Below the pieces are notes generated by a model. It searched no databases. It had not been told where the DNA came from and saw only the letters and a list, made by a program, of their open reading frames with translations. Below are positions 2,243 to 64,000 of a DNA stretch of 64,000 nucleotides, piece by piece. Source of the stretch: Octopus vulgaris. Taxonomy: Eukaryota. The stretch spans positions 5,208,001-5,272,000 of the forward strand of contig OX597817.1 of assembly GCA_951406725.2 (NCBI GenBank), read 5' to 3'. How positions within the stretch are numbered: the first letter of the stretch is position 1; each line of letters starts with the position of its first letter. The translations under genes and the position numbers were made by a program.

Positions 2243-5200
2243 AATTGAGATAGGGGTTGTAAATGCAACCCTCCATGGGATAACATATATCCAATCTACC
2301 GCTAGTTAAGTACCCAACAAAGTTAATACATAAATGTTAATAATTGCGATGCAATTAATTCACTTATTCCATTTGAAACGAATATGATTATTCATTCGAA
2401 CAGCGGACGAAATGCAAACAACCTTGGATGCAAGCTGTGCTATAGAACCTTTGCAACTGAGAGAGGCTTGAAGATACATCAGGGAAAGACTTGTGAGAAG
2501 AGGACAGAGCAGTGTGGATCGTCAGATCGTAAAACACGTGGCAAATCATCCCCGGACTCAAACCACAGCGGATCGATAAATGCTACAGCACAGAACTCTT
2601 CACGTGAAGAAACTACAAGTCATGAAACTGGTGCATCGGATAATACTCAGAGGAAACCGAGGGTTTTGTGGCCTGCTGCTAATGAGAAAGTGAAATATAA
2701 AGAGTTTGAAAACAAGGTTTGTCGGACTCTTTATAAAATGACAGGCTCTACAGTGGAAAAACTGGGAAAATTATCAAGCTCAATATACGATGTAGCAAGA
2801 GATTTATTTGGAATAAAAGAGAATATCCGACTAGAGAAAGGAAAGTGTGGACCAAGCAGGAGGATCAGAAAAATGCAGCAGTTGAGGAAGGAAAAGTCCG
2901 ACTTAAGAAAGAGATGGAGATGTGCTGCACTAGATGAGAAACCTGGCCTTGCGTTGCTGTATAACGATTTGAAGAGGAAATGTCGTTATGTGCAACGACA
3001 TATTCGCCGATATGAGCGTCGAAAAGAAAGTAAAAGGACTCGAGGGCAGTTTCTGAAGGACCCGTACGGGTTTACTAAGAAGCTGTTCACTGAGCCGAAG
3101 AGTGGTACTTTATCGTGCACTAAAGAAGAATTGGATGCTCATATCAAGGAAACCTACAGCGATCCGCACCGTAATCAGCCGCTGCCATCTCTACATGGGC
3201 TAAATCATCTCTCAGGACCTGATATCGAATTCCAGATTGGGGACATCAGGGAGAGAGAGGTGAATGACTTCGTAAGAAAAGCTAGAGCGAAGAGTGCCCC
3301 AGGAGGTGATGGCGTCTCATATAAAGTCTACAAATACTGCAATCGTCTGCGAAAGAAGCTCTTCGTCCTAATCCGACAACTGTGGCGCGAGGAGACTATA
3401 GTAGAGGATTGGTGTAAGGCAGAAGGTATATACCTGCCGAAAGAGGCCAATGCAAAGACCATAAAACAGTTTAGGCCGATATCCTTATTGAATGTGGAAG
3501 GCAAGATCTTTATGGGAATTCTGTCGAGGAGAACAGTGACATATTTACAGAGTAACGGATATGTTGATGAATCTGTTCAAAAGGCCGGAATCCCCGGGAT
3601 CCCTGGATGCGTTGAACACTGTTTTTCGATTTGGAAAGCGATTCAGGATGCCAAACAGAACAAGAAAAGTCTGAACGTGGTATGGCTCGACCTAGCTAAC
3701 GCGTATGGTTCAGTGCCACACAAATTACTAATAACAGCCATGGACCACTTCCACATTCCTGACAAAGTGATCAAAATAATGAGGATGTACTATGAAAGTT
3801 TCGAAATGAGGTTTACAACTGGAAGTTTTACAACAAATTGGCACCGATTGGAGGTTGGCATTGCTGCTGGCTGTACAATATCTGTCACGTGGTTTATCTT
3901 AGTCATGGAGTTGATTTTGAAAGGTGTAGATTTTTCGGAACAAATCGCCCATGTACAATCGCCTAAGAAAGCCTTCATGGATGACGTGACACTTCTAGCT
4001 ACAGATAAACAAATCATGCAGAATGCCCTTTTGAGATTAGACGAACGTGTAAGGTGGTCAAGGATGCGATTTAGAGCAAAAAAGTCGCGTAGTCTGACAT
4101 TTGTTAAGGGAGTGCAGAAAGAATTTAAATTTCGAATATCGGAAGAAAGCATTCCAACAGTCAAGGAAGAGCCCGCCAAGAGCTTGGGACGAGTATACGC
4201 TGGAACATTGTCAGATAGAAGTCGTGGGATTGAAATTATGAAACAGGCCGAGGCTGGGTTATCAGCGATTGATGTTTCGAAGTTACCAGGTAAATATAAA
4301 ATTTGGTGCTTGCAGTTCGGCCTGTACCCGCGACTTGCGTGGCCACTTTTAATATACGAAGTAGCATTGTCACGAGTTGAAAAGATCGAACAAAAATGTA
4401 ATGTGTTCATTAGAAAGTGGCTAGGTCTACCTCGTATGTTGAACAGCTCAGCTCTTTATCGTAAAAGAGGTTCGTTGCAGTTACCAATAGCATCAATAGT
4501 CGAAATATATAAGTTGGGGAAGATACGGACGGTCATGATGCTGAGAGAATCGAAGGATATGGAAATCAGGCGTAACCCACCAGAGGTGAAAACAGCCAGG
4601 AAGTGGAAAGCAGAAGCAGAAACTGACAACATCTTGTCTTCTCTTACACACAGAGATATGGTGGGAGCAACGCAGAACCATCGGAAAGGATTTGGTTTTG
4701 GCGCGGATCAGTTCAGACCGTTTGCAAGCATGATGCCGTGTGAACGCAGATCTGTTGTTAGCAACAGCGTCAAAACAAGAGAAGCAGAAAGAAGAGAACT
4801 TCATTTGATCCGATGTGTTCATCAAGGTCAGATGACGAGATGGGAAGAACATGTTGTTGAGAGGAAGATAAGTTGGGATGAGATGTGGAAGTGGACAACA
4901 TCTCGGCTGAGTTTCCTGATTCGTTCATCTTATGATGTTTTGCCATCACCTACGAATCTAGTAAGATGGAACGTCTTAGAGAATGACGTCTGCAAATGTG
5001 GAAAAGTCGGTACACTAAAACATATTCTTTCCAACTGTTCGTTAGCATTGAACAGGTACACATGGAGGCACAACTTGGTCCTTAAGGTTATCTTCAATGC
5101 TATAAAGAATCAAATTCATCTCAACAACACTGAGGAAAAATCGTTAAAAGTACCATCAAGAGAGTTCATTACCTTCGTGCGACCAGGTCAGCAGATCCGT

Positions 5201-5848
5201 TTCAAGAAGAAGACCAAGAAGCTTCCTGAGAAAAATGAAAAGTGGAACGACTATTGGGAGGTAACTGCAGATTTACCTGGGTGCCAGGTTTTCTTTCCCA
5301 TCCCAGTTTCGAAAAAACCAGATATTTTGATGTGGTGTGAAAGAAAGAAAGTTTTAAATATAGTCGAGCTAACGGTTCCTCACGAAGATAATATGGACGC
5401 CGCTCGAGCTCGAAAATTAAACCGTTATGAAAACCTCCTCGAGGAATATGAAGACGCAGGCTGGAAAGCGGAACATTTTCCTATCGAAGTCGGATGTAGA
5501 GGGTTTGTAGGACACAGCGTGAGACGACTGTTGTTATCGTTAGGCCTAACTCATCGTAAAGTCAATACCACCATGACTGATATCCAATCTACAGTGGAGA
5601 AGGCTAGCCACTGGATTTGGTTAAAAAGAGACGATGAGCGATGGCTAGAAGTATATTGAGTTCATCATAACCAGCTGATCTAGCAAGCGGGGCCTCATAT
5701 CAGTGAGGGGGGCCGGTGCGCATTGATGCCGTCGAGAGGTAGGCCCCGAAACGGCGCGCATTCTCTCCTGATGACCCCATACACTTGCTAGCTTCCGATA
5801 TACGGAGCTTTTAACTGGTAGCACTTGCATGTGCAAGTTGTTTGCAAG
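2241..5848 (+). mobile_element. Apparently full-length HERO-type retrotransposon with short structured UTRs
   Basis: Non-repetitive sequence starts right after (TA)n at 2240. ORF 2384-5659, GC-rich structured 3' UTR, then ATATATAT resumes at 5849. Ends are inferred. Confidence 0.8.
2384..5659 (+). CDS. Single ORF of a HERO-clade (R2-group) non-LTR retrotransposon: zinc finger + reverse transcriptase + CCHC knuckle + restriction-like endonuclease
   Basis: Uninterrupted 1091 aa. N-terminal CKLC..F..ERGLKIHQGKTC finger; RT motifs FRPISLLN, QKAG, WLDLANAYGSV, GIAAGC, AFMDD; CKC..TLKHILSNC knuckle; RYTWRHN; KPD..ELTVP REL core; C-terminal EKASHWIWLKR. AFMDD and ELTVP are typical of HERO. Confidence 0.93.
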   Translation: MIIHSNSGRNANNLGCKLCYRTFATERGLKIHQGKTCEKRTEQCGSSDRKTRGKSSPDSNHSGSINATAQNSSREETTSHETGASDNTQRKPRVLWPAANEKVKYKEFENKVCRTLYKMTGSTVEKLGKLSSSIYDVARDLFGIKENIRLEKGKCGPSRRIRKMQQLRKEKSDLRKRWRCAALDEKPGLALLYNDLKRKCRYVQRHIRRYERRKESKRTRGQFLKDPYGFTKKLFTEPKSGTLSCTKEELDAHIKETYSDPHRNQPLPSLHGLNHLSGPDIEFQIGDIREREVNDFVRKARAKSAPGGDGVSYKVYKYCNRLRKKLFVLIRQLWREETIVEDWCKAEGIYLPKEANAKTIKQFRPISLLNVEGKIFMGILSRRTVTYLQSNGYVDESVQKAGIPGIPGCVEHCFSIWKAIQDAKQNKKSLNVVWLDLANAYGSVPHKLLITAMDHFHIPDKVIKIMRMYYESFEMRFTTGSFTTNWHRLEVGIAAGCTISVTWFILVMELILKGVDFSEQIAHVQSPKKAFMDDVTLLATDKQIMQNALLRLDERVRWSRMRFRAKKSRSLTFVKGVQKEFKFRISEESIPTVKEEPAKSLGRVYAGTLSDRSRGIEIMKQAEAGLSAIDVSKLPGKYKIWCLQFGLYPRLAWPLLIYEVALSRVEKIEQKCNVFIRKWLGLPRMLNSSALYRKRGSLQLPIASIVEIYKLGKIRTVMMLRESKDMEIRRNPPEVKTARKWKAEAETDNILSSLTHRDMVGATQNHRKGFGFGADQFRPFASMMPCERRSVVSNSVKTREAERRELHLIRCVHQGQMTRWEEHVVERKISWDEMWKWTTSRLSFLIRSSYDVLPSPTNLVRWNVLENDVCKCGKVGTLKHILSNCSLALNRYTWRHNLVLKVIFNAIKNQIHLNNTEEKSLKVPSREFITFVRPGQQIRFKKKTKKLPEKNEKWNDYWEVTADLPGCQVFFPIPVSKKPDILMWCERKKVLNIVELTVPHEDNMDAARARKLNRYENLLEEYEDAGWKAEHFPIEVGCRGFVGHSVRRLLLSLGLTHRKVNTTMTDIQSTVEKASHWIWLKRDDERWLEVY

Positions 5849-9364: not shown

Positions 9365-9694
9365 AGTGTCTTCTACTATAACCTCAGGCCGACCAAAGCC
9401 TTGTGAGTGAATTTGGTAGACGGAAACTGAAAGAAGCCCGTCATATATATGTATATATGTATGTGTGTGTGTATATGTTTGTGTGTCTTTGTTTGTTCCC
9501 CCCTCCCAACATCGCTTGACAACCGATGATGGTGTGTTTACGTCCCCGTAATCTAGCGGTTCGGCAAAAGAGACCGATAGAATAAGTACTAGGCTTACAA
9601 AGAATAAGTCCTGGGGTCGATTTGCTCGACTAAAGGCGGTGCTCCAGCACGGCCACATTCAAATGACTGAAACAAGTAAAAGAGTAAAAGAGAG
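9365..9694 (+). mobile_element. tRNA-derived SINE family B, 5'-truncated
   Basis: Near-identical to copies at 21108, 25751, 39455 and 44185 (ttgtgagtgaatttggtagacggaaactgaaagaagccc; internal TA/GT tract; tail ggcggtgctccagc..aagtaaaagag). Confidence 0.85.
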
Positions 9695-11457
9695 TGTTAC
9701 TGTCGAAGGTATCCTTAGATGTTTTCCGTAAAGTTTCCAGAAAATATTGAAATATTCAGGCTCCCTAATAATATCGTTGTCGGATACGACATCGCTAAAA
9801 CAGTTGCATATCATTACACACGCTGCGTGTTTGACAACTGCCATGAATATCTTGAAAGAATCTTCGTTTAATTTCTACTGCTTAAATCCTATTTTCTCGT
9901 TTCTCCATATTTCTTTCTATAGTTCCTCCAAAGTGAAACATTTTTGTAGTCTTCAATCATCTACTGGTGAATTTTTCGTCTCTCTAAAAATTTTATTGAA
10001 CTTTCTATCAGTAGTTTTTTCCATCAACGAAACCTAGCCCAAGACAATTGTAAACTGGAGATTCTGAAAAAAGATCTTTATTCCTATTTCATTTTTTTGT
10101 TTTCTGTGTATTGCCTTAATTGATTGAAGACATTTAGCAGCTCGTATATTTGATGAGTAAATGATCATTTATCACTAGTCGATTGGTAAGCAACATTTAT
10201 AGGCATTTTTCAATATTTACTACGAAAGGAAATACATATAGCTCTGCAGCTTCGTAATGATGCAGCATACAATTGTTTCTCAAGTTCATTATATGCATTC
10301 ATTAGAAAGATTTTATTCATTGAAATCAGTATCGGAACGCAAACTAAATATATTTTTTGTCTTATCATGACAGTCCATTTTCACGCGGTGAACTTGCAGA
10401 ATATTTACCTCTCCGGACAAAAGCTAAGGGGGCATTTACATTCTTAATTTAAATGTTTCCAAATTCAACTTAGCCATTTATCCTTTCAGAGTCAATAATA
10501 TAAGTACCAGTTGAGTATTACGGTTGATGTAGTCGACTTATCCCCTCCCTTGACATTGCTGGATTTTTGCCAAAACTTGAAACCATTATTACAGTTTATT
10601 CTCGTCTAATATTCGGCAGAATCACTAAAGTCGCAAACACAGCTTTGCAATATTATGGTATATACCTTTAAGTGACTTGAAATTTACTTTAAAATCAAGA
10701 TATACTGTCCATCAATTTTCTCGACATGACTTCCATATTATAAACGATTATCATAGGAGACGTTTAATGATATTTAAAATACCCTTTATCCGTTACCATA
10801 AAATTTTTAATAATATTTTAGTAATTTATATACTTAATGCAAATTTGGAACACTGAAAACTTTTAACATCCCTATTAAATAATTGTTTATTAAATCTAGA
10901 GAAGAGCAAATGTATAAATATCTGAATAGTTGCATATGATAGGTTATCTGATTAGTTTCGCTTTGTTTTGCATGTGGATGTGTGTGTGCCTGCGTGTGTG
11001 TGTACGCTTGTTTTAATGAATTTGTGTGTAACAATAACATTATCAATTAAACAATGAATGCTACTTAAATCTGCTTAAAATTTAACACTTAATCGTGAAT
11101 GTCTTCCAAAAATAATTGCAGATCGAATATATAAGTAATTAAGTTAATGTTAACATATTTAATGTGGTAAGTATCTATAATGAAATCAGAAATAATTCAG
11201 CGAGGAGGAAAAGACAGAATTAGCGCAATGATAAAAATATTAATCATTGAGTTAAAATGTTGCCATTTCTGAAATGCACAAGTATTTCTTATCAAATTTC
11301 TTATACTCATTAGATTTTATTGCGCTAACACTAACTTAACTGCTAGTGGTTGGGAAGCAAGCTTGTTACCACACAGCTAATCCTGCGCCTATGTATATAT
11401 GTATAAATAGATGTATAGATGTGTGTGAGTATGTGTGTATGAATATATGTATGTATA

Positions 11458-16036: not shown

Positions 16037-16529
16037 CTGAGCTAGAGATAGATATTTAAAATTCATTGATCGACACTTATTCTGTCATTTTATTAGAGAC
16101 TACACTTACGAAGATTGTGAACCATCAGACATACCCATATATCATTATCATATGAATTTTGTGACATCATTCCGTCATTATGACTTTCAAAGCAAATAAC
16201 TCCTGAATAATAGCTCCACACAAGAATTCTATCCTCCGTGAGGCTTCACCTCCTCATCTGCTATTTATGCACTAAATAATAATTCATTCTCGATTATGAG
16301 ATTTAGTATTTTACTTAAAAAGTAAGTTTGGAGCTATTAGTATTTGGCGCTTTAATTTACCTCAGTAGTTCATTGGTTTCTTTAATTATCGATCCCATTC
16401 AGAGGGTACGAACGTCATAGTTGGCCTTGGTGAGCAGTGAACTTACAATGTAAATGTATACATATAAAAGCTACGAAATATTGTATCTGTCATTTTAATG
16501 TTTCTACGAATCCATCATTTTTATGATAT

Positions 16530-17740
16530 TGGTTTCTAATTTTGGTACAAGGTCAGCAGTTTCGGCGGAGGGGTACGTGTATTACATTGACCTCAGTATT
16601 CAACTGGTACCTTGTTTTAACAACTCCGAAAGGATGCATGGAAAAGTGAGACGAGGAAGAATTTGAACTCAGAATGCAAAGTCGGAAGAAATGCTCTTAA
16701 GCAACTTTTTCTAGCGTGGTTCCGATTCTTCCATCTTGCAGTCTTCCCCATTCTGTTACTATTCATTTCCAGCATAGAAACAAGGCCTGAAATTTGAGGA
16801 GAGGAATGAGTTCGTTTAATCGACATCAATACTTGAGTGGTACTTGTTTTAACAATGGTTTGGAAAGTTGCAACGCATCGGCGGGATTTGAACTCAGTTA
16901 GCAAATCAACGCAAGATATTTCTCCGATGCTCCAACGATTTCGCATAACCAGTGCTCTAAACAATTTCTTACATAGGCGGAAGGCCTCAAATTTGGAGGA
17001 AAGGGCGCAGCCAATTATACCCTTGTTCACTTCCCCCAGTACTCGGCACTTCATTTTGTCAGAGTCTACCTCGGTGGTATTTGAGCTTAGAATGTTATGT
17101 TATGCACTTAAATAGAACAAAATATTTTAGCCGCCACTTTGATGAATTTGTGAATTGATTACCTTAATAAAAGTGATTTCTGCATTAATACAAGACCACA
17201 AATCTAGATGAATTAGTTGACTAAATCATCCCAAATAATATTCACAATAATTGTAACAGTCTCCTTGTGTTCCTATCTACCAGCTTTCAAGAATAAAGAA
17301 CAAAAACTTGTTATTATTGATGTTTAGCTCCTGCTCAGGCGGCTTTACATATATAAACGTTCTATACAAAATCTTTTACATTTTACTCAGAAACAGTTTA
17401 TCCAGACAACGTATTATGTGACTTGAAGGATATTTAGCTGCTTGATATTTTCCAGTAGTTATAGACTGCATTAGAATTGCAAGCAATATATATACAAATG
17501 CCATGACGGTGTGACAAGGGCGACGAGTTGGTGGAGTTTTTAGAATATCAGAAAAGATGCTTTGTGATATTTCTTCCGGCTCTTTAAGTTCCGAGTACAA
17601 GAACTGCTGTGATCGACATCGACTTTCATCCTTTCGAGAACGATAAAATAAAGTGTCAGTCAAGTACTGTAGTCGGTGATATCGAATAACCTCCTCCTAC
17701 ATATCTGCTGGACTTGTGAATCTAAATCAAAAAACCATTA
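16530..17740. mobile_element. Cluster of old, diverged SINE family A copies
   Basis: Repeated degenerate caactggtac / gaatttgaactcag / tttcatcctttcgag motifs on both strands. Confidence 0.6.
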
Positions 17741-18163: not shown

Positions 18164-18514
18164 GAACAAGCATAGACCAATGGGAGTTGAGGTGGAATTC
18201 GATGACCTACCACCTGTTGTGAATTATAAAGATTCGAAGCCATACATTAACTCGAAAGCGTGAGTAAGCGTTTTAGATAAGACTATACATGCGGCGCTAA
18301 AAGGAAAGGAAAAAGAAAAAAAAGAGGGAAAAATTATATAAAAAACTTTTATTGAAACAGTTAAATGGTACTACTTGAGAGTGGGTTTCATCCTCATTAA
18401 TTATTATCTATCCCTCATTTCATTCGTTTCATGTTTTTGTCCCCACTGTGGTGTTCTGTCTGTCCTTGTGTCTTCCCCTCTGTGTCATGGCCTGTGTGCC
18501 AAATAAAAGAGATA
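18164..18514 (+). mobile_element. 3' UTR fragment of a Tx1-like retrotransposon inside a (GTC)n-like tract
   Basis: 3' end ccttgtgtcttcccctctgtgtcatggcctgtgtgccaaataaaagagata aligns with the 3' end of the Tx1-like element at 50282-50340 (minus). Flanked by gtcgtcgtcgttgtcg and cgtcatcattgtcg. Confidence 0.55.
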
Positions 18515-18884
18515 CGTCATCATTGTCGCCGCTGTTGTTTTTGTTGTTACAGAAGCTATTATTGCTGTTCACACTGATACTGGAACTTTCTGTTATTATC
18601 ATGTTCCTAATTTAGATACTAGATCAGCAATTTTGCGACAAAGGTTTGATCGATTTCATCAACATAACTGCTTGACAGGTACCTTATTTTATCGGCTCCG
18701 AAATGGAAAAACAGCAAAGTGGGCCTCAGCGGCATTTGAACTTAGAACGCAAAACTCCAAGATAGATTAACTTTGCCTTTCATACCCTTCGGGGTCGATA
18801 AATTAAAATACTAATCAAGTACTGGTGTCTGTGGTGTCGACTAACCCTTTCTCTCATCAAAACTACTGGGCTTGTACCTCTTTT

Positions 18885-19116
18885 TATTTCTTTACTACCC
18901 ACAAGGGGCCAAACACAGAGGATACAAACAAGGACAGACAAACAGATTAAATCGATTACATCGACCCCAGTGCGTAACTGGTACTTAGTTTATCGAACAC
19001 GAAAGGATGAAAGGCAAAGTCGACCTCGGCGGAATTTGAACCCAGAACGTAACGGCAGACGAAATACGGCTACGCATTTCGCCCGGCGTGCTAACGTTTC
19101 TGCCAGCTCGCCGCCT
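18885..19116 (-). mobile_element. Young full-length SINE family A (tRNA head, Meta-like core, Tx1-like tail)
   Basis: ggcggcgagctggcaga...gttcaaattcc...gcctttcatcctttcg...tgtgggtagtaaagaaata; multiple copies in the window. Confidence 0.88.
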
Positions 19117-19149: not shown

Positions 19150-19470
19150 ATGTGTGTAGTTTAGAGGATAAAGATTTCGGTTAACGATCCGGAGGTCGTG
19201 AGTTCGATTCCCGGTGGCGCGTTGTGCCATAGAGCAAGACACTTTATTTCAAGCTCCTCCAGTCCACTCAGCTGGTAAAAATGAGTAGTACCTGTAATTC
19301 GATGGAACCAGCTGTGTCACAGTATGTGTGACGCTGACTCTCCCCAAGAACTACATTGAGTGTACGCGAGTCTGTGGAATGTTCAGCCACTTGCACGTTA
19401 ATTCTACGTGCAGGATAATCTATTGATCGGCTCAACTAGAACGCGCATCTTCGTAACCGACGGAGTGTTT
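19150..19470 (+). mobile_element. tRNA-derived SINE (family D head)
   Basis: B box gagttcgattccc, gagcaagacactttatttc; tail shared with the copy at 38557-38932. Confidence 0.75.
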
Positions 19471-19921: not shown

Positions 19922-21107
19922 TTATGTTCCAGCCATAACCGTCAAGCAACCTTATGCCTTTTGCTCTAAACTATGCACTGCAGCCTCTAATTCTGAGAAC
20001 ACCGGATACGATTTGAAGGAGATTTAGCCGCTATTTTTAGCCATGCAAACGACCGCACAAGTACTGCTCTCGTAGCTCCTATTATAGATGTTATTTACTC
20101 CCCACGTCACAAGTAGACTGGAACATTAAATAATCAGTCATTCCACCTATGACCATTCTGCCTTAATAAGGGACATCTAGGTCTACAATGTCTAATGTGC
20201 TCGTCCATTTTAAACAAGGCAGAGTATGACATAAGGGATATTAATCTGTGAGTTCTGGAAGATCGTTATTATTTGCTTCCATTCTTAGTAGTGTTATTAT
20301 TTTTGTTGTCAGCCGTTTAACTTCTAAATAATGCAACAGTGAATGGCATCAAGTTTATAGATTCAGGAAAATATTCGCTGAAACGACGACGTCGCAGACA
20401 ACTCAGAAAGGTTATCATGACCAGGTAGCCTACCTTTCGTTTCAAAGTCTTGGTGTTGCCAGCACCTCTCTCTTGTAAAATTGTGGTGGTTTTTCTTGTT
20501 GATGTTGCTGCGGATGTTGTTGTTATTACAGTTATGATTGCTATTGCTTTTGCTGTTGTTGTAGTTGTTTTTTTTTTTCTGTTGCTATTGCTGAAGTTGT
20601 TGTTGCTGCTGCTGTTGTTATGGTCACAGCTGATGTTGTTATTGCTTTTGTTGCTGTAGTTGTGAGGGCAACAGTTATTGCTGCTGTTGTTTCCGAGGTT
20701 ATTTCTGAGGTTGTTATTACACTTGTAGTTTTCTTTTCTTTTTTTTTTTACTGTCATATGTTTTTGTTGCTGTTGTTGTCGTTGCTGCTTCTGCTGTTGT
20801 CATTGTCATTATTGCTATTGTTGTTCTTGTACTTCTTGCTGCTGTTCCTATAGCATTTGTTATTAATGATGTTGTTGTTCTTGTTGTTACTATTACCCCA
20901 GGGATTGTTTCGTTGTTATTTGTGGCAATGTGGGGGGTTATTGCTATAATATATATTGTTGCTGTTGCTACTATTACTACTAACCTTGCTACTCTTGTTT
21001 ATCTTGATCCTATCATTGTCAATCATGTTGTTGTTGTTGTTATTATTATTATTATTATTATTATTGTTATTATTATTACTATTATTATTATTATTATTAA
21101 TATACTA

Positions 21108-21324
21108 TTTTACTTGTTTCAATCAGTTGACTGCGGCCATGCTGGAGCACCGCCTTTTAGTCGAGCAAATCGACCCCAGGACTTGCTCTTTGTAAGCCTA
21201 GTACTTATTCTACCGGTCTTTTTTGCCGAACCGCTAAGTTACGGGTTCGTAAACACACCAGCATCGGTTGTCAAGCGATGTTGGGGGGACAAACACAGAG
21301 ACACAAACATATACACACACATAC

Positions 21325-21379
<55 letters not shown>

Positions 21380-21597: not shown

Positions 21598-21844
21598 CCC
21601 CTATTTATTCCTATTATTATTATTATTATTATTATTGTTATTATTATTATTGCTATCATTATTACTATTATTATTACTATTATTAAGGTGATGAGCTGGC
21701 AGAGTCGTTAGCTTAATGACATTTCATCCGTCTTTACATTCTGAGTTCAAATTCCGCCGAGGTCGACTTTGCCACACATCATTTCGGGGTCGATGAAATA
21801 AGTAACCCCGCCCCACCCCAAATTTAAGGCCTTTTGCTTTATTA

Positions 21845-21894
<50 letters not shown>

Positions 21895-22670: not shown

Positions 22671-22972
22671 TAAGGCAGTGAGCTAGCAGAATCGTTAGCA
22701 AAACGGAGAAAGTGTTTGGTGGCATTTTGTCCGTCTTTATATTCTGAGTTCAACTTTGCTTTTCGTCCTTTCGGAGTCTGTGAAATAGGGACCAGTTAAG
22801 CACTGCAGTGTCGATGCAATTGATTAGCTACTTCTCGTAAAATTTCAGGCCTTGCGCCTACAACCGAGATGATTGTTATCATTGTTGTTGTTGATGCTGA
22901 AGACGTCACTGTTATCGTTAGGGCTTTTTTTTTTACTTTTTCATGCTGTCGATGTTGTTACATTTGCTGCTG

Positions 22973-23108
<136 letters not shown>

Positions 23109-23344
23109 ACTTACTGCTGCAGCTACGACTACTGATACCCCTGTTATTATCATTGCTATTATAGTTGTTGTTGCCGTTCCCGTTGCTGTCATGTTTGTTA
23201 GTTACTGTCGTTGCCGCCTTACTGTTCTAGTAGTAGTAGTAGTAGTAGTAGTAGCAGCAGCAGCAGCAGCAGCAGGAGTAGAAGTAGTTGTTGTTGTTGT
23301 TGTCGTTGTTGTTACGGTTGTTCTTGTTATCGTTGTCGTTGTTA

Positions 23345-23550
23345 AGGCGGCGAGCTGGCAGAGACGTTAGCACGCCGGGCGAAATGCTTTGCGGTATTTC
23401 GTCCGCCGCTGCGTTCTGAGTTCAAATTCCGCCGAGGTCGACTTTGCCTTTCATCCTTTCGGGATCGATAATAAATTAAGTACCAGTTACGTATTGGGGG
23501 TCGATGTAATCGATTTAATTCCTTTGTCTGTCCTTGTTTGTCCCCTCTAT
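23345..23550 (+). mobile_element. Young SINE family A, 3'-truncated
   Basis: Matches the 18885-19116 copy. Confidence 0.88.
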
Positions 23551-24084
23551 CGTTGTCGTTGTTCTGACTTGTTGTTGTCAATGCTAAGCTTATTTTCATT
23601 GTTGCTGTTGCGGCTATGGTTACGTTTTAGTTGTTGCTATTTCTGTTATGACTACTGTTGCTGTTACTGTTGGTCTTATGCTTGTTGTTGCGACTGTTGT
23701 TCTTGCTGTTTTTTTTTATTATAGATGCTACTGTTACTAATACTGTTAATTTCATGATTATTCTTCTCGTTATTTTTATAGACGTTATTATTGTCATCAT
23801 TGCTTTACTGTTCATTATTGTTTTTTGCTGTTAAATCTGTTCGCATTATTTTCATTGTTGTTTTAGCTGCTGTTGTCACTTTTTGGATGCGGTTGTCGTT
23901 AGCGTCGTCGTTGATCTAATAGTCGCCGATGTTATTGCAGTTCTTACTCTCATGAGCGTCGCTGCCATTGTTATGGTCGTTGATGTTATAGCTGTTGATA
24001 TTATGGCTGTTGTTCCTGTTCTCATGTTTGCTGTTATTATTGCTGTTGTTGTTATACACGTTGTTCTTGATGACGTTGCTGAGG

Positions 24085-25035
24085 ATGGTAAACTGGCAGA
24101 ACCGTTAGCACGCCGGGCAAAATTCTTAGCGGTATTTCGTCTGCCGCTACGTTCTGAGTTCAAATTCCCCCGAGGTCGACTTTGCACTTCATCATTTCGG
24201 GGTCGATTAATTAAGTACCAGTTACGCACTGGAGTCGATATAATCGACTTAATCCGTTTGTCTGCCCTTGTTTGTCCTCTATGTGTTTAGCCCTGTGTGG
24301 GTAGTAAAAAAATAGTTATTGCGTCTGCCATTACGTTCTGAGTTGAAATTCCGCCGAGGTCGACTTTGCCTTTTATCCTTTCGGGGTCGACAAATTAAGT
24401 ACCAGTTACACACTGGGGTTGATGTAATCGACTTAGTACCTTTGTCTATCCTTCTTTGTCCCCTCTATGTTTAACCTCTTGTGGATAATAAAGAAACAGG
24501 TATTTTGCCAGCCGTTACGGTCTGAGTCCAAATTCCGCCGAGGTCGACTTTGCCGTTTATCTTTTCGGGTCGATTAAATAAGTACCAGTTACGCACTGGG
24601 GTCGATATAATCGACTTAATCCGTTTGTCCGTCCTTGTTTGTCCTCTCTGTGTTTAGCCCATTGTGGGTAGTAAAGAAATAAGTATTTCATATACCGCTA
24701 CGTTCTTAGTTCAAATGCCGCCGAGGTCGAGTTTGCCTTTCATCCTTTCGGGGTCGATAAATTAAGTATCAGTTACGCACTGGGGGTCGATGTAATGGAC
24801 TTAATCCCTTTGTTTGTCCTTCCTTGCCCCCTCTATGTTTAGCCCCTTGTAGGCAATAAAGAAATAAGAAACGTTAGCACACCGGACAAAATATTAAGCG
24901 GTATTTCGTCTGTCCACCACGTTCTATGTTCAAATTCCGCTGAGGTCGACTCTGCCGTTAATCCTTGCGCACTTGATAAAATAAGTACCAGTCTTTCCCT
25001 CAAAAACTGTTGGCCGTGAACTAAAATTTAAAATC
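24085..25035 (+). repeat. Head-to-tail array of five SINE family A units (about 184 bp period)
   Basis: Units start near 24085, 24315, 24499, 24682 and 24868; each has gttcaaattccgccgaggtcgac..aagtaccagttacgcactgg. Confidence 0.92.
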
Positions 25036-25750
25036 ATTGCTGATGACTTTGCTACAATAGCAGATAGTATTTTTGTTGTTTCATTCATGCGCGTCGATGT
25101 TGACGTTGGTGATGATAGTTATGATGATGATGGCTGTGCGAACTGGTTGTGTATTTCGATTTATGGTAGCTTTTTTAATGCATTGCGTTTATACTGAGGT
25201 CTGTGTTACGGATTTTGTTGTTGTTGCTGTTGTTATTGGTGGTGGTGGTGGTGGTGGTGGTTGTGGTGGTGGTGGTGGTGGTGGTGGTGGTGGTGGTGGT
25301 GATGGTGAAGTAAGGTTATGGTTGTTGCTTTTCTTTTTGTTGTTAGGCTCTTGTATTTGTTTTTCTATTATCTAGAGGAAGAAGCTGAATCGGTGCTGCT
25401 AATGTTAATTCCAAACAGCTAAAATTCTAAGGTTACAGGGGACATAAAGGATGGTTGACGAGAAAATAGGAGAGTAGACAGTCAAGGCTGTCTACACTGG
25501 GTGGATAAGAGACCAGCATGCTCTGAGGAGCAGAAGCCACAGTAATACTGTAAAAAAAAGTAAGGGCATATAGAGATTTATACAGGAATTTTATTGTGAA
25601 GGGCAAAGGTATTTTGACTATTGTGTTCGTGTTGGCATATATGAACCATTATAAATATATTATATGTACACATGTACTTATACAAATACATGTAATTACA
25701 TATACTAGCAACACACACACATGCACACACACTCATATATATATATATAT

Positions 25751-26155
25751 TACTCTTTTATTCTTTTACATGTTTCAGTCATATGACTGCGGCCATGCTG
25801 GAGCACCGCCTTTAGTCGAGCAAATCGACCCCGGGACTTATTCTTTGTAAGCCCAGTACTTACTCAATCGGTCCCTTTTGCCGAACCGCTATGTGACGGG
25901 GGCGTAAACATACCAGCATCAGTTGTCAAGCAATGCTAGGGGGACAAACACAGACACACATACATATACATATATATATATATACATATATACGACAGGC
26001 TTCTTTCAGTTTCCGTCTACCAAATCCACTCACAAGGCATTGGTCGGCCCGGGGCTATAGCAGAAGACACTTGCCCAAGATGCTACGCAGTGAGACTGAA
26101 CCCGGAACCATGTGGTTAGTTAGCAAGCTACTTAACACACAGCCACTCCTGCGCC
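25751..26155 (-). mobile_element. Full-length SINE family B
   Basis: Head ggcgcaggagtggctgtgtg..ccgggttcagtc; tail actgaaacatgtaaaag. Confidence 0.9.
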
Positions 26156-33118: not shown

Positions 33119-33535
33119 ACTACACGTAGGAGTCATACGTGAGCTTGTATAATGCACGCTACAGTATCCGACAGTCGTTCTGGCTCAAATATTAAAGCTA
33201 TTCCGTAAGAAAATTAAACGAAACAAAAGAGCGAGAAAGCTAAATATGACAAAGCAGCGACAAAAAAGACAATCAAGATGGCTGTAAAAATAAATTCGAG
33301 GAAAAGGGAGATAATTCCATTTATAGGATCTAGATTGCCTCGTTTTATCTCGTTAAATAAAGTACTTTGTTAATATTAAGAGTTTACGACTGTAAACAAT
33401 TATACCTGGTGTGTTCTTTTGAATTAGGAGAAAGCCGGGGATATGTTAAACTGTGTCTAATTCGGTGAGTGATTCGTTTTCACAGCTAAACAGATCCTGT
33501 ACATTTTTGAGCCACATGTTGATGTGTGATATACT

Positions 33536-33767
33536 TATTTCTTTACCACTCACAAAGGGCTAAACACAGAGAGGACAAACAAGGACAGACAAACGGATTA
33601 AGTTAATTATATCGACCCCAGTGCGTAACTGGTACTTATTTAATCGACCCCGAAAGGATGAAAGGCAAAGTCGACCTCAGCGGAATTTGAACTCAGAACG
33701 TAGCGGCAGACGAAATACTGCTAAGCATTTCGCCCGGCGTCCTATCGATTCTGTTAGCTCGCCGCCC
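33536..33767 (-). mobile_element. Young SINE family A with a 16-bp target-site duplication
   Basis: TSD tgatgtgtgatatact at 33520-33535 and 33768-33783. Confidence 0.92.
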
Positions 33768-34249
33768 TGATGTGTGATATACTGCTGTTCTTCAGGCTCT
33801 AGATATGGTTCGCCAGCGTCTTAGTTTTCTCTATGTCCACGACTGGTGACTGGTGTATCTTATTTTGAAGCCACTTGCTTACGATCCAGTACATTGTTTT
33901 TTCCTTTCCTCTCACTCATTTGGCGGAACGGAGGTGATTACAGCTTCGTGTGATGATGCATTTATGTGGGCAAAGTATCTGACTTGCTATAGTTCCAGTC
34001 TATAGGGGACATCTTTAAACTGATGATTTACATATTAGGGACGCAGCTATTAGATGCTTTCTTGAAATGCCTACGATTTTGTTTTCATTACATTATATTA
34101 TCGCCCGCTTGATTGTGTACTTTTTGCTGATCCTATCAATAACGAAGCGAGCACTATATGAGAGTACGTGCTCGAGTATTGTGATGTATGAGTGCCTTTG
34201 TATATTAATATATCTTTATATTCCTAGGAGTATGAATAGCGAGAGAGAA

Positions 34250-39454: not shown

Positions 39455-39813
39455 GGCGCAGGCGTGACTGTGTGGTAAGAAGCTTGTTCTCCGACCGCAT
39501 GGTTCCGTGTTGCTTTCGACTGCGTGGCACCTTTTGGCAAGTGTATTTTACTATAGCCTCGGGTTGACCAAAGGCCTGTGAGTGGATTTGGTAGAGGGAA
39601 ACTGAAAGAAACCCGTCGTATATATATATATATATATATATACCACGGTATTTGTATCTGTGTTTCTCCACCACCATTGCTTGACAACCGAAGTTCGCGT
39701 GTTTACGTTCCCGTAACTTAGCGATTCGGCAAAAGAAACTTACAGGATTAAGTACTAGGCTTACAAAGGATAAATCCTGGGGTCGTTTGTTCCACTAAAC
39801 ACTGTACTCCAGC
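39455..39813 (+). mobile_element. SINE family B
   Basis: Head ggcgcaggcgtgactgtgtggtaag; body as in the 25751 copy. Confidence 0.85.
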
Positions 39814-44184: not shown

Positions 44185-44336
44185 TGTATAGTAAGAAGTT
44201 GCTTTTCCAAACACATAGCTCCGGATTCAGTCTCACTGCGTGGCGCCTTGGGCAAGTGTCTTTTAATATGGCCTCGAGCCGACAAAAACCTTATGAATTG
44301 ATTTGGTAGACGGTAACTGAAAGAAGCCCGTCGTTT

Positions 44337-44412
<76 letters not shown>

Positions 44413-47774: not shown

Positions 47775-48399
47775 CTGAAGAGTAGAGTTGAAAAGATGGA
47801 AGACTACAAGTTAAAAACGTAATATTCAATAAATAACATATTTATGTTTATTGTTAATGTTCTTGCGCCATGTAGTGAAAAATAAATTATTATTGCTGCA
47901 TTGTGAGATGCTGCTTATGCTCCCAAATTTTTTTGCTGACTAATCGAATCTAAGAAATCGAATGTGTTAGTTAGCACCCACACATTTAGTTGGCATTTTC
48001 CATTTTATGATTTTCTATTATATTTTATTTCACTTTATCTATTCACCACATTTATTTGTCATTTATATTGTGGTTTCCGATTTTAATTTTCTATCTCTAC
48101 CTTTTACATAGAAGTGGATATTGATTATTTATATATTAATATCTTTATATAAAATTCCTTCTTAATGCCAGCGGAAAAGGATTTTCAAATATTTATGTCA
48201 TAACATATAAGCATCATTTCATTACACAGGTTATGTATAGTAAATGTCTTATTAAGCACTACTTATGACATAAAATTCAGAGCTACTAATGTATAATCAA
48301 TAGTTTGTTCATGCATACAAATATACATACATACCTACACACGCATATTTCACATTTATATAATATTATATATGCATATAAAACACAGAAAACACAAGA

Positions 48400-50021
48400 T
48401 GATGGTCGTGAACCCCCTCCATTTGATAGATCGGTACCTCCAATGCTTCGATTGGTCATCACGCGGGATGAAGTCAAACGTGTTATTCAAGGCCTCGATG
48501 TCAACAAGGGTCACGGCCCTGACGGCATACACCCACGGGTTATCAAAGCGTTGGCTCCGGTCATCTGCGAACCCTTAACACGACTATTCAATATGTCATT
48601 GGCGACGGGTGTTATACCTGCAGACTGGAGAACAGCGATAATCTGCCCAATTTTCAAGAAAGGGAGCCGCGAAGACCCGCTTAACTACCGACCGGTTTCC
48701 CTTACATCAATAATCAGCAAGATGTTCGAAACCATCCTTAAGTAAAGTATGATGCTCCACCTCCTAAACACAGCCTCGATCACTGATTCCCAACACGGCT
48801 TCGTGCCGAAGAGATCATGCTTGACCAACTTACTAGTAATGGAAGAATTGGTGACGCGCATCCTCGATGATAGTGATGCTGTTGACATCGTTTTATTGGA
48901 CTTTGCCAAAGCTTTTGACTCGGTAAACCACCGCCTACTACTTGTCAAGCTTCAAGCATATAGTTTCCATCCGGATATTGTACGATAGGTTGGTGCCTTC
49001 CTCTCAGATCGCTCCTTCCAAGTTCAAGTTAATGGTTCGCGGTCCGACGTCTCCAGTGCGAGCAGTGGCGTGCCTCAAGGTTCAGTGCTTGGGCCCTTGT
49101 TGTTCTTAGTCTTCATAAATGACTTGCCCGACGACCTCACGCAGCATACCCTTCTATTTGCCGACGATATCAAACTGGTCGCTCCTCGCGGTAGTATAGA
49201 GGATCTTCGTCGATGCCTCCACCAAATTTGGAAGTGGTCTAACGATTGGGACCTGTGTCTGAACGTGTCAAAGAGCTGTCATCTGCCTGTCGGCTCTACT
49301 CCTGCAACTCAACTTGATTTCGAGCCGGGTTGTCTGCTGCTGGAGAGGACCGATCAGGTAAAGGACCTGGGTATCTTGGTGGATTCCTCCTTTTCGCCTT
49401 CGGCCCAGTGCGTCCATGCTGCCAACAAAGCGCGCGGAATTCTGTTTTTGATTCGACGGTCATTCGGAATGCTCACAGCAGCCATATTCCTACCACTCTA
49501 TGTCACGCTGGTGAGACACATATTGGAGTATGGGATTCAAGCCTCTTCTCCTTATCTCCTCAAAGACATACAGCATCTCGAAAGAGTCCAGAGGCTGGCT
49601 ACCCGCATGGTTCATGGTCTCAAACATTTGTCCTACGAAGAAAGGCTGAGGACGCTCGACCTTTATTCTCTTGAAAAACGCCGCCGCCGTGGTGATCTCA
49701 TTCTCGCCCACAACATCATAAGCGGGAAGTGTAACCTCTCGAAAGAGCTGTTCTTCACTCCTGCTCCGGAGCGTCGGCTGTGGGGTCATTCCGAAAAGCT
49801 CTACCTGCGACGATTTCATCTCAATCGAAGGAGAGGAGCTTTCTCCGTCCGGGTTGCGGATCCGTGGAACAAGCTGCCAGACGAGATGGTGAAGATGCCG
49901 ACGACCGCTTTGTTCAAAGCCTCCCTGGACCTCAAGTGGCCTGAACTCTTTACATGAACACCACCCTGTACTTAACTCCATGTCCCCCTACATGGCCTTG
50001 CTATTTGCTTTTGAGCCAAAT

Positions 50022-50079: not shown

Positions 50080-51174
<1,095 letters not shown>

Positions 51175-52610: not shown

Positions 52611-53530
52611 TATAAAATGTTTGGAGGTGATGTACAGATAATATATATTAGAAAAAATAAGGTATTCAGATATCTGGATGGTTGTACATATACAAATATT
52701 TATTAACATGTCACATGTTTTTACAAATCTCATATAATCGCTTTCATCTACTCTAATTGATTCTTCAGATTTAAATTTTGTGAAGGGATTTGTCACTTTT
52801 TGCAGTATTAGTGAATGGGTTGGGGGAGGGGGAAAAGAGTAATGTGGAGTGTGTAGAGTAGGAAAAGAGGGAGAGGAATGGGGAGATAGTGGAGGGAGAA
52901 AGTGAGAGAGAGTGTGTGGATTTGTGTGTGTGTGCCTGTGTATCTGAAAGGAAGCGTTTTGAACAACAGACAAAGAGAAAAGGAAAAGAATATATATTTT
53001 AAGTAGGTGGCTAGAACAGATGCTTACTTTGGTTCAGCCAGCTCACTTGGGAGTCTGAAAGAAAAATGTTTTCTTGGTGAAAAAATGTGTTTTTTTTTAA
53101 TGTCAATGGAAAAGAGAATGGAAAAGAAAGAGAATGGAAAAGGAAGAAAGAAAGAAGAAAAAACGTGTTTATATCTATAGTGTTGGTCAGTTGTTTCAAT
53201 AGAAGATGACAAGTTGATTCTTGGTCTGTATAAATGACAAGACCAGGTGGTTACTCGAAGGCGGGGGCTGCTTTGATGAGGAATAATGATAGCTATTTTT
53301 CAAAAAATTGTCCGGACTTATTATCATCATCATCATCATCATCATTGTCCAATGCTTGATTCTCATGCTGGTATGGGTTGGAAAATATGGATGCAAATAT
53401 ATATATATGCGTACATATACATATGATTGCATTTATAGCACTAATAAAGTGAAGAGCACAAGTAAAAGGAGTAACATTAGTAAAAGGTAAATTATACCTA
53501 ACCACTTTAATATAATAACCACTTTAATAT

Positions 53531-53758
53531 GGCGGTGAGCTAGCGGAAACGTTAGCACGCCGGGCGAAATGCTAAGCAGTATTTCGTCAGCCGTTACGTT
53601 CTGAGTTCAAATTCCGCCAAGGTCGACTTTGCGTTTCATCCTTTTGGGGTCGATTAAATAAGTACCAGTTACACACTGGAGTCGATATAATCGACTTAAT
53701 CCGTTTGTCTGTCCTTCTTTGTCCTCTCTGTGTTTAGCCCCATGTGGGCAAAAAAAAA
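53531..53758 (+). mobile_element. Young SINE family A with an ~18-bp TSD
   Basis: ataataaccac(t/c)ttaata at 53512-53529 and 53767-53784. Confidence 0.9.
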
Positions 53759-53865
53759 TTTTTTAAATAATAACCACCTTAATACCTCGAGTCTCCTGCA
53801 CCTAACAATAACAACAAATAATATTCTACACTCACAAAAACCACAATGCTTTAAATGTAGCATGA

Positions 53866-54504: not shown

Positions 54505-55360
54505 GTGGATGACTAGCAAATGCTTATGAATCGTATTTCTGCTTCTTGCAAGGCATTTGGACATAGCATTATCCTGGACAAGACTACTGTAATGTTCCAA
54601 CCTGCACCAGGAAATCCATGTGGAACTAGTTATCTTGGTTGAAGGGAAAATACAGTAAGTGGTAGATACGTTTGTCTTCCTGGGCAGAATACTCAGCTGT
54701 TCTTGCTCACCGGATGATAAAATATCTTTCAGGCTGCAGAGAGCAACTGATTCCTTCCGGTCTCTTGATCCTCGTTTCTTGTCTCAGCATGGCATCATAA
54801 GATGTGCCGTGCATGTGTATTGGCATCATTCCTTTACTCTTGTGAGACAGGGACCCTTTAGAGGCGTCATGTAAAGGTCCTTGGACGCTTCCATCAGAGA
54901 TGTCTGAGACGAATTCTGAATGTTAGCTGGACCTTGAAAACTCTAGACACACAGAACTTGAGGAAAGCTGTTATCTTGGGTATTGAGATGGTGGGGCACA
55001 AGGACCGGTTACGTTGAACTGGACACCTTATTAGAATGAAGGAAGCAGGATCCCTAAACAGATGCTATATGGGGAAATTGTTAGTGGAAAAACACCCCTG
55101 CAGAAACCAAGGCTGAGATTCAAGGATTGTTTCAAGTCTTAATTGAAGTCCTATGGTAAGTAGGAAACTGACTGGGAGAGCAACGCCTGTCATTTCCACA
55201 GATGGAGGAACCAGGTTAAGGAGGAGCTCGACACCTTTGAAACAGCACATATTCTTCATGAAGAATTTAAGCGTGCTGCTCGAAACGCACTGCTAGCATA
55301 GTGAATGGGGAAAACTTCGTTTGCAATGCCTGCAGTTGTGTATGCAAAATATAAGTTAGT
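54505..55360 (+). mobile_element. Decayed RTE (BovB-like) LINE 3' fragment
   Basis: SCKAFG..I...KT.VMFQPAPG, VVDTFVFLG, FHQRCLRRIL..SW, TGHLIRM, IPKQMLYGKL, C-terminal CNAC..C. Confidence 0.82.
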
Positions 55361-63554: not shown

Positions 63555-63878
63555 GGTTGATAAAATAAGTACCAGCTAAGCACTGAGGACGATGTAATCG
63601 TCTTACCCACAACCTCCCTCAACCTGCTGGCCTTGTGTCAAAATTAGAAACCAATATATAAATACATGAAGGTAGGGAACTTGCATAATCGTCAGCACGC
63701 CAGGCGAAATGCTTACCGGCATTTCGTCCGTCCTTACGTTGAGTTCAAATTCCGCCCAGGTCAACTGCTTTTCATCCTTTTGGGGTCGATAAAATATGTA
63801 TCAGTTGATCACTGGAATCGATTTAATCGATTTAGCACCTTCCTCGAAGTGGCTGGCCTGGTGTTAAAATTAGAAACC
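63555..63878 (+). mobile_element. Two older SINE family A copies with the ancestral-type tail
   Basis: gataaaataagtaccag..ggccttgtgtcaaaattagaaacc; gagttcaaattccgcc..catccttttggggtcgataaa. Confidence 0.75.
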
Positions 63879-64000
63879 TATATATATATACATACATGTA
63901 AAATCACACACATGTGCGTGCATGGGAAGTTACAGATAAGATAGGATTAGGATGATGGCAGGATACAAGGAAATCCATAGAAATTAATGCATGTAGTGAG

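Follow-up and report, generated by a model that had tools for sequence, protein, structure and literature searches.

A nested array of short interspersed elements (SINEs) in Octopus vulgaris raises the question of which LINE enzyme copies the young members of this SINE family. The window, i.e. the whole stretch of DNA analysed, comprises 64 kb. A previous sequence-only reading had marked the span 24241-24868, which cuts across the array (24083-25036), and had proposed that the SINE moved onto Tx1 machinery by a tail swap. The tail of the young copies shows homology to the 3′ terminus of one Tx1-like LINE in the window. Enzymes of this kind are the likely, though not the certain, drivers of the SINE.

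The SINE family and its insertions

The SINE family is about 232 bp long and covers about 5.9% of the window. It is short, interspersed, multi-copy and non-coding, with target site duplications (TSDs) of 16 and 18 bp. The 20 copies or fragments analysed comprise eight with a young tail (seven complete, one cut inside the tail) and twelve with an old tail (Table 1). Two motifs, near bases 11-21 and at base 75, were picked by eye and are taken to be A-box-like and B-box-like, respectively, on an assumed box consensus. ARAGORN reported no tRNA gene, and no tRNA was present among the 150 of 212 Rfam matches listed. Nearly all of the latter were miRNA models, besides one pestivirus UTR (E 0.42), and lay below the gathering thresholds. 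No likeness of the SINE core to the bivalve Meta, MD, EbuSINE2 and SepiaSINE sequences emerged when two supplements were searched by words and the sequences were compared by eye. The supplement sequences compared did not place the core in the Meta, Deu or Ceph superfamily, and a Meta-domain label for the core was dropped. The core had no match in viral contigs. Another repeat family (9365-9692, 21103-21340, 25753-26071, 39540-39813, 44255-44386) contains an internal TA/TG microsatellite and has a 24-bp stretch in common with the SINE core (20/24).

The order of young and old copies assumed in the sequence-only reading is supported by divergence and nesting. The average divergence is 11.6% among young-tail bodies (8 copies) and 36.5% among old-tail bodies (the 7 of 12 copies with enough body). 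In addition, old-tail copies contain nested young copies. The young units show a mutual identity of 82-92% and divide into A and B types. AATAAA is kept in both B tails, as in both non-SINE ends described below; most A tails carry AGTAAA or a variant. For the copies at 10540 and 63600, a different tail after the core had been noted, and it is indeed present. The old tails form at least two types, represented by seven and four copies, respectively, and one copy is borderline. Old-tail copies are clustered at 16526-17135(-), 21687-21845 and 22674-22875, with three in one orientation. Two of the type 2 copies sit in (ATT)n. Dong/R4 is conceivable as partner of the (ATT)n-associated old tails.

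Three of the eight young copies lie outside any SINE. The TSDs read previously from the sequence were recovered, with 16 of 16 identical positions for 33520-33535/33768-33783 and 17 of 18 for 53512-53529/53767-53784. TSDs of 16-18 bp are compatible with any APE-type LINE. As a sign of the partner, they fit an APE-type LINE, as had been argued, but do not single out Tx1. The RTE-driven SINE1-1_EBu, for instance, yields TSDs of about 17 bp (PMC7245038). A TSD was looked for at the young copy 18884-19115 and none was found. About 65 bp from this copy, another type of tRNA-like head begins, in which a B-box-like motif is present (19180-19300, plus strand). The appearance of the copy at 23328-23563, which is cut inside its tail, suggests internal priming on a short target match.

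Table 1. Positions of SINE copies, array units, LINE parts and duplications in the window.
Feature	Position	Strand	Evidence
Full-length young SINE (33536-33767), 16-bp TSD, in unique DNA	33520-33783	-	
Full-length young SINE (53531-53760), 18-bp TSD with one mismatch, in unique DNA	53512-53784	+	
Full-length young SINE adjoining the tail of an opposite-strand old-tail copy (18764-18883)	18884-19115	-	
Young SINE (23346-23547) ending inside the tail, 16-bp flanking duplication, in GTT-rich DNA	23328-23563	+	
Old-tail copy, type 1	10385-10590	+	
Other type 1 old tails	16528-16573(-), 17691-17737, 18602-18644(-), 63612-63655, 63836-63881		
Old-tail copy, type 2, in (ATT)n	22674-22875	+	
Other type 2 old tails	21808-21843, 16766-16808(-), 16965-17007(-)		
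Candidate left TSD of the old-tail host, 12/13 identical to 25041-25053	24068-24080	+	
Array unit A1: diverged SINE head leading into young A-type body and tail, no visible seam	24083-24314	+	
Array unit B1: young B-type from head base 49, AATAAA retained in tail	24315-24498	+	
Array unit A2: young A-type from head base 49, tail 24621-24681	24500-24681	+	
Array unit B2: young B-type from head base 49, tail meets host head base 15 (A-box region)	24683-24866	+	
Old-tail SINE, 3′ part: from head base 15, internal deletion, tail type 1	24867-25036	+	
Candidate right TSD of the old-tail host	25041-25053	+	
Further 3′ end with homology to the young tail, terminus of a ~350-bp element (about 18169-18514) located in GTC/GTT repeats	18457-18514	+	
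5′-truncated Tx1-like LINE, poly(A)-less, in (TATC)n microsatellite	50280-50945	-	sequence, protein matches
LINE 3′ end homologous to young SINE tail	50285-50333	-	shuffles, profile
ORF2 remnant (C-terminus, two frames) preceding the 3′ UTR	about 50945-50740	-	protein matches

Probable repeated insertion in the nested array

The array consists, in this order, of a head, the units A1, B1, A2 and B2, and the remainder of an old-tail copy. The head of A1 is likely the 5′ part of the old host SINE, and the old-tail part at the other end is likely the host of the array. Since a 13-bp near-duplication flanks the whole block, a single old copy invaded by four young ones is suggested. Among local control windows, 2 of 79 and 0 of 79 reached a near-duplication of this length; the flanks are of low complexity. 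Three tail junctions in the array are located at head base 49, the fourth at base 15.

The junction recurs in public contigs, which were compared with one dispersed young copy. A young tail joined to base 49 is the loose-end consensus of 1,052 contigs in run X1 (agreement 0.62) and of 515 in run X11 (0.84), where contig numbers do not equal locus numbers. A go-back joint of 184 bp was present in three of four public runs (X23, X1 and X11). An old tail followed the SINE core in 943 and 139 public contigs. Raw reads on the SINE amounted to 15 and 217 of 12.9 million, far under the share of the family in the window, and no frequencies were derived from them. Run X24 yielded 49 reads on 33505-33800 in which 13 bases of the head site at base 49 lie between two tails. 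These reads may represent mini-arrays of tail-only copies spaced by the target, and may stem from a single locus. The targets at the junctions 33535, 23548, 24500 and 50280 start with similar words (GTATATC, TATCG, GTATTTC and TATCTATC), hinting at related endonuclease preferences at these few sites. The junctions of 53531-53760 and of base 15 depart from the shared word.

An array may also arise by local duplication or unequal crossover instead of repeated targeted insertion. The homology of the tails would then stand, and the argument from a shared target would fall. The A-B-A-B order resembles a duplicated dimer, and for the SINE arrays of bivalves an origin by unequal recombination has been put forward (PMC11481361). 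This origin is nevertheless unlikely. A1 and A2 differ by 10.6% and B1 and B2 by 15.8%, whereas A1 and A2 are only 8.3% and 8.8% different, respectively, from the dispersed copy 33536-33767. Because they are no closer to each other than to dispersed copies, the units are regarded as separate insertions, and a local duplication of recent date was rejected as sole origin of the array. The same junction base in hundreds of contigs also speaks against duplication, though contigs do not count loci.

Tail homology and the Tx1-like LINE

The sequence-only reading had aligned the young tail with two ends outside the SINE, at 18457-18514 and 50284-50333, and this alignment withstood shuffling and a profile scan. 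The end 50285-50333(-) is identical to the seven complete young tails in 35-37 of 50 columns (70-74%). For 18464-18512, the identity amounts to 32-34 of 49-51 columns (63-68%), and the two non-SINE ends (50285-50333(-) and 18457-18514) are mutually identical at 36/51. Composition-matched shuffling, which had been named as a check, gave significance for both. None of 2,000 dinucleotide shuffles of 50278-50345(-) reached any of the seven young tails (z 7.1-9.4), and 0-1 of 2,000 shuffles of 18450-18516 did so (z 4.8-7.3). A profile of the seven tails was scanned over the whole 64 kb, which corrects for matches picked from the entire window. Outside the SINE copies, it identified 50332-50285 with 27.7 bits (E 1e-7) and 18508-18457 with 17.4 bits (E 1.6e-4). 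The third-ranked non-SINE match scored 3.0 bits, and only two ends pass. Of 100 locally shuffled windows, the best reached 9.0 bits. The remaining LINE ends of the window, scanned in the same run, did not match the young tail. Young SINE and LINE share the 3′ end point, a few bases past AATAAA/AGTAAA. The common 3′ end sequence of a stringent SINE-LINE pair is present, significant over 50 columns. Published bivalve SINE-LINE tail matches extend over 35-61 bp with 72-95% identity (PMC11481361); the young tail stands at the low end of this range.

None of the twelve old tails matched the 50278-50345(-) end, with z at most 0.8 in dinucleotide shuffles. Four of them are weakly similar to the 18450-18516 end (18-74 of 2,000 shuffles as good), so that a remote common origin of the old and the new tails is conceivable. 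Profiles of the old tails gave no useful E-value against either non-SINE end or any other LINE end in the window.

A hairpin of 3-5 bp is found ahead of AATAAA/AGTAAA in 25-nt windows, with -1.3 to -6.0 kcal/mol. It is broken or shifted in the dispersed copy 33536-33767 (y33) and in B1. The hairpin is part of the whole-tail minimum-energy fold in three of nine sequences, and no z-score falls below -1.9. In the SINE register, at least 59 of 500 shuffles reach the observed pairing on each measure. Double-sided hairpin changes occur between the two non-SINE ends. A shared stem-loop, the fold of which had been suggested as a check, is weak on these measures and in the SINE register not above shuffles.

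Both ends had been called Tx1-like. The designation applies to 50285-50333(-), which belongs to a LINE, but 18457-18514 is without a protein match. The LINE is flanked by (TATC)n on both sides, lies in phase with it and is known from one copy. Both frames of its remnant match the protein P0002 (72% over 29 aa; 23/31). The P0002 cluster includes P0009, a protein of 1,111 aa with an endonuclease (PF03372), an RT (PF00078) and a zf-RVT domain (PF13966). An APE endonuclease, an RT and a C-terminal zinc knuckle are therefore ascribed to the LINE by proxy, via P0002 and P0009. Of the six protein matches of the remnant, three (P0001, P0003 and P0005) were discarded, being repeat proteins without relation to LINEs. 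P0004 and P0006 are degenerate relatives and carry no weight. A word-index protein search with the second LINE frame retrieved nothing. The top named matches of P0009 are a protein from Argonauta hians (68%) and the Xenopus Tx1 ORF2 (340 bits). Its score against human L1 is lower, with 175 bits, and the L1-like control P0064 reached 605 bits against human L1. A quick tree of 39 rows grouped the P0009 lineage with Tx1, apart from the L1-like rows (SH-aLRT 92, unstarred). In a careful tree of 18 of these rows, the lineage is an own 100/99 branch in a polytomy, located outside the L1-like clade, yet not joined to Xenopus Tx1. On these protein comparisons, naming the LINE a 'Tx1-like' member of the L1 superfamily is justified.

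The element at 18169-18514 had no Pfam, tblastn or C-terminal profile match. It may be all 3′ UTR or derive from a distant family. A metagenome scan for full-length LINE DNA together with the 3′ UTR gave 94 pattern matches, of which none was confirmed. The LINE-tail pattern was detected at 33 loci, but neither the tail profile nor the window matched significantly at any of them; one tblastn match occurred, to P0065 only.

Further elements are present in the window. An open frame of 1,110 codons with an RT domain at 2327-5659 (plus strand) is probably a young intact non-LTR element. Its C-terminal motifs resemble a restriction-type endonuclease and are taken to be Hero/R2-like. A two-frame RT at 48290-49957 (plus strand) is presumably CR1-like, judged from its C-terminus, and ends in (TAAC)n directly ahead of the (TATC)n tract containing the Tx1-like end. 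The sequence 54517-55229 (plus strand) is a degraded LINE ORF2 piece with a tblastn match to P0077, probably from another clade.

The proposed partnership and known systems

The tail match together with the stacking at a fixed spot in its own copies makes it likely that Tx1-like enzymes copy the young SINE. On balance, the sequences favour a SINE of predicted Pol III type whose tail stems from a template switch and is recognised, in place of poly(A), by the Tx1-like ORF2 protein that copies the SINE. The SINE would have acquired 50-60 bases from a Tx1-like RNA. Donor and driver would be a sister family of the (TATC)n-targeting LINE in the window. The endonuclease of this sister family would favour the head of the SINE itself, at base 49 (GTATTTCG) and less often at base 15, and would also cut elsewhere, giving the 16-18-bp TSDs. 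Nicking of the SINE head by the sister family would explain the fixed base-49 junction. The new cDNA would anneal to the head target and join without a visible 5′ seam, because it is homologous to this target. Insertions joined by homology would result in head-less repeats of about 184 bp. Within the window, the only LINE confirmed as such is embedded in (TATC)n and not in a SINE. It is probably a cousin rather than the partner, because its tail is about 72% identical, compared with 82-92% among the young units. Hence, the tail swap onto Tx1 machinery proposed before is retained for the kinship of the tail with a Tx1-like LINE and for the direction of the swap, but not for the LINE of the window as partner. 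Neither a near-identical LINE donor nor a LINE 3′ UTR leading into the tail was present among the 20 loose ends listed (683 more exist). Fixed-site self-insertion, absent from the sequence-only reading, is the better argument for a target-specific partner than the TSDs. Tx1-group elements and SINEU passengers are known to be target-specific and to insert in tandem (PMC4494074).

A wider reading is put forward tentatively and with some doubt. Octopod Tx1-like LINEs may be stringent and poly(A)-less members of the L1 superfamily, and an abundant SINE may have taken their 3′ tail with its hairpin and may host their landing site in its head. The passenger would then build targets for its carrier and for itself, since its head (Pol III, predicted) supplies the landing site, and homology would make the join on the 5′ side.

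The tail may instead be a relic of a Tx1-like LINE, and the SINE may be moved by another APE-type LINE (RTE, CR1) or by a relaxed recognition of A-rich ends. The identity of just 70-74% and the weak hairpin would agree with a relic. So would the copy 23346-23547, which is without the hairpin end, yet shows a 16-bp flanking duplication, in low-complexity DNA, and thereby argues against a strict dependence on the tail. RTE, CR1 and Dong-R4 have also been recently active in Octopus vulgaris; the same holds for L1-Tx1 with 13 families (PMC13282606, Table 1). A relic is rather improbable, however, given that insertion at a fixed site in the head is a habit of target-specific Tx1-group elements and that SINE and LINE have an identical 3′ end point. 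Slightly less probable still is the reverse direction, in which Tx1-like LINEs landed in SINE copies and obtained their 3′ end there through read-through or a template switch. In favour of it, the SINE copies, with about 5.9% of the window, are far more numerous than the LINE ends. Against it, divergence is greater between the two non-SINE ends (36/51) than among the young SINE units, indicating that the tail has existed longer outside the SINE. Furthermore, the young tail is absent from older SINE copies, and no SINE core is located upstream of either non-SINE end. Chance or convergence in a U/G-rich stretch preceding the polyadenylation signal, to which a short and pyrimidine-rich match might be ascribed, is highly improbable and was rejected on the 0 of 2,000 dinucleotide shuffles, the profile score of 27.7 bits, compared with no more than 9.0 in 100 shuffled windows, and the other LINE ends of the window, which do not match the young tail.

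Copying by a Tx1-like enzyme through the tail, if true, would provide an animal SINE with a Tx1-like tail and support a tail-specific recognition that is ancestral in the L1 superfamily and relaxed in mammals. Two old tails and two young subtypes would offer a natural swap series for testing the ancestral tail recognition. In addition, a partner would be named for a part of the large, mostly unclassified SINE fraction of the octopus. SINEs represent 11.6% of O. vulgaris, and 893 of 900 recently active SINE families are unclassified (PMC13282606). The passages of this source on O. vulgaris describe L1-Tx1 as active and SINEs as mostly unclassified, and give no SINE-LINE pairing.

Tail swapping as such is ordinary and already known. 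The pairing of an animal SINE with a Tx1-like tail was not found described. No tRNA-type SINE with a Tx1 tail was found in the relevant parts of PMC3747384, PMC3472496, PMC4494074, PMC4824008, PMC5786205, PMC13282606 and PMC11481361, nor in passages of PMC4758252, PMC7245038, PMC5804259 and PMC4176376. The term 'Tx1' occurs 0 times in the text available from PMC11481361, and 'TX1' refers to mutant names in the passages of PMC4176376. The SINE may already be named, as Repbase, Dfam, SINEBase and most subscription papers lie outside this literature. A table of 58 SINE-LINE pairs contains three L1-tail SINEs only, with no Tx1 tail and no animal L1-clade pair (PMC3747384, Table 1).

Mollusc MetaSINEs (PMC4824008) and bivalve HCD SINEs (PMC11481361) likewise combine a constant head and body with swapped LINE-derived tails, and form arrays. 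The partners of the tail-swapping mollusc SINEs are CR1, CR1-Zenon, L2 and Nimb, and the core of the octopus SINE is unlike the Meta sequences compared. A 3′ end of about 50 nt in common with the LINE, together with a small hairpin, is also a feature of ZmSINE2/3 with LINE1-1_ZM and of SINEX-3_CR with L1-1_CR (PMC3472496, PMC3747384). These SINEs are tRNA-type, of plant and algal origin, and have L1-clade partners (Ohshima, 2012, PMC3472496; Ohshima, 2013, PMC3747384). The in-phase position of the 50280-50945 LINE in a microsatellite is shared with Kibi in (TC)n and Koshi in (TTC)n (PMC4494074). Unlike these, it has (TATC)n as target, is represented by one copy, and belongs to a lineage not placed beside Xenopus Tx1.

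The crocodilian SINEU/Tx1-Mar system is similar in comprising a short element with inferred mobilisation by the Tx1 group, a target preference in common and tandem insertions at one site (Kojima, 2015, PMC4494074). SINEU is the one Tx1-driven SINE group found in the literature, and is without a shared tail (PMC4494074). It has snRNA heads, poly(A) and a Mariner transposon as target, and no LINE sharing the 3′ end of SINEU-1 was found according to the passages concerned (PMC4494074). In contrast, the octopus SINE has a head of predicted Pol III type, a tail shared with a LINE, no long poly(A), and its preferred site in itself.
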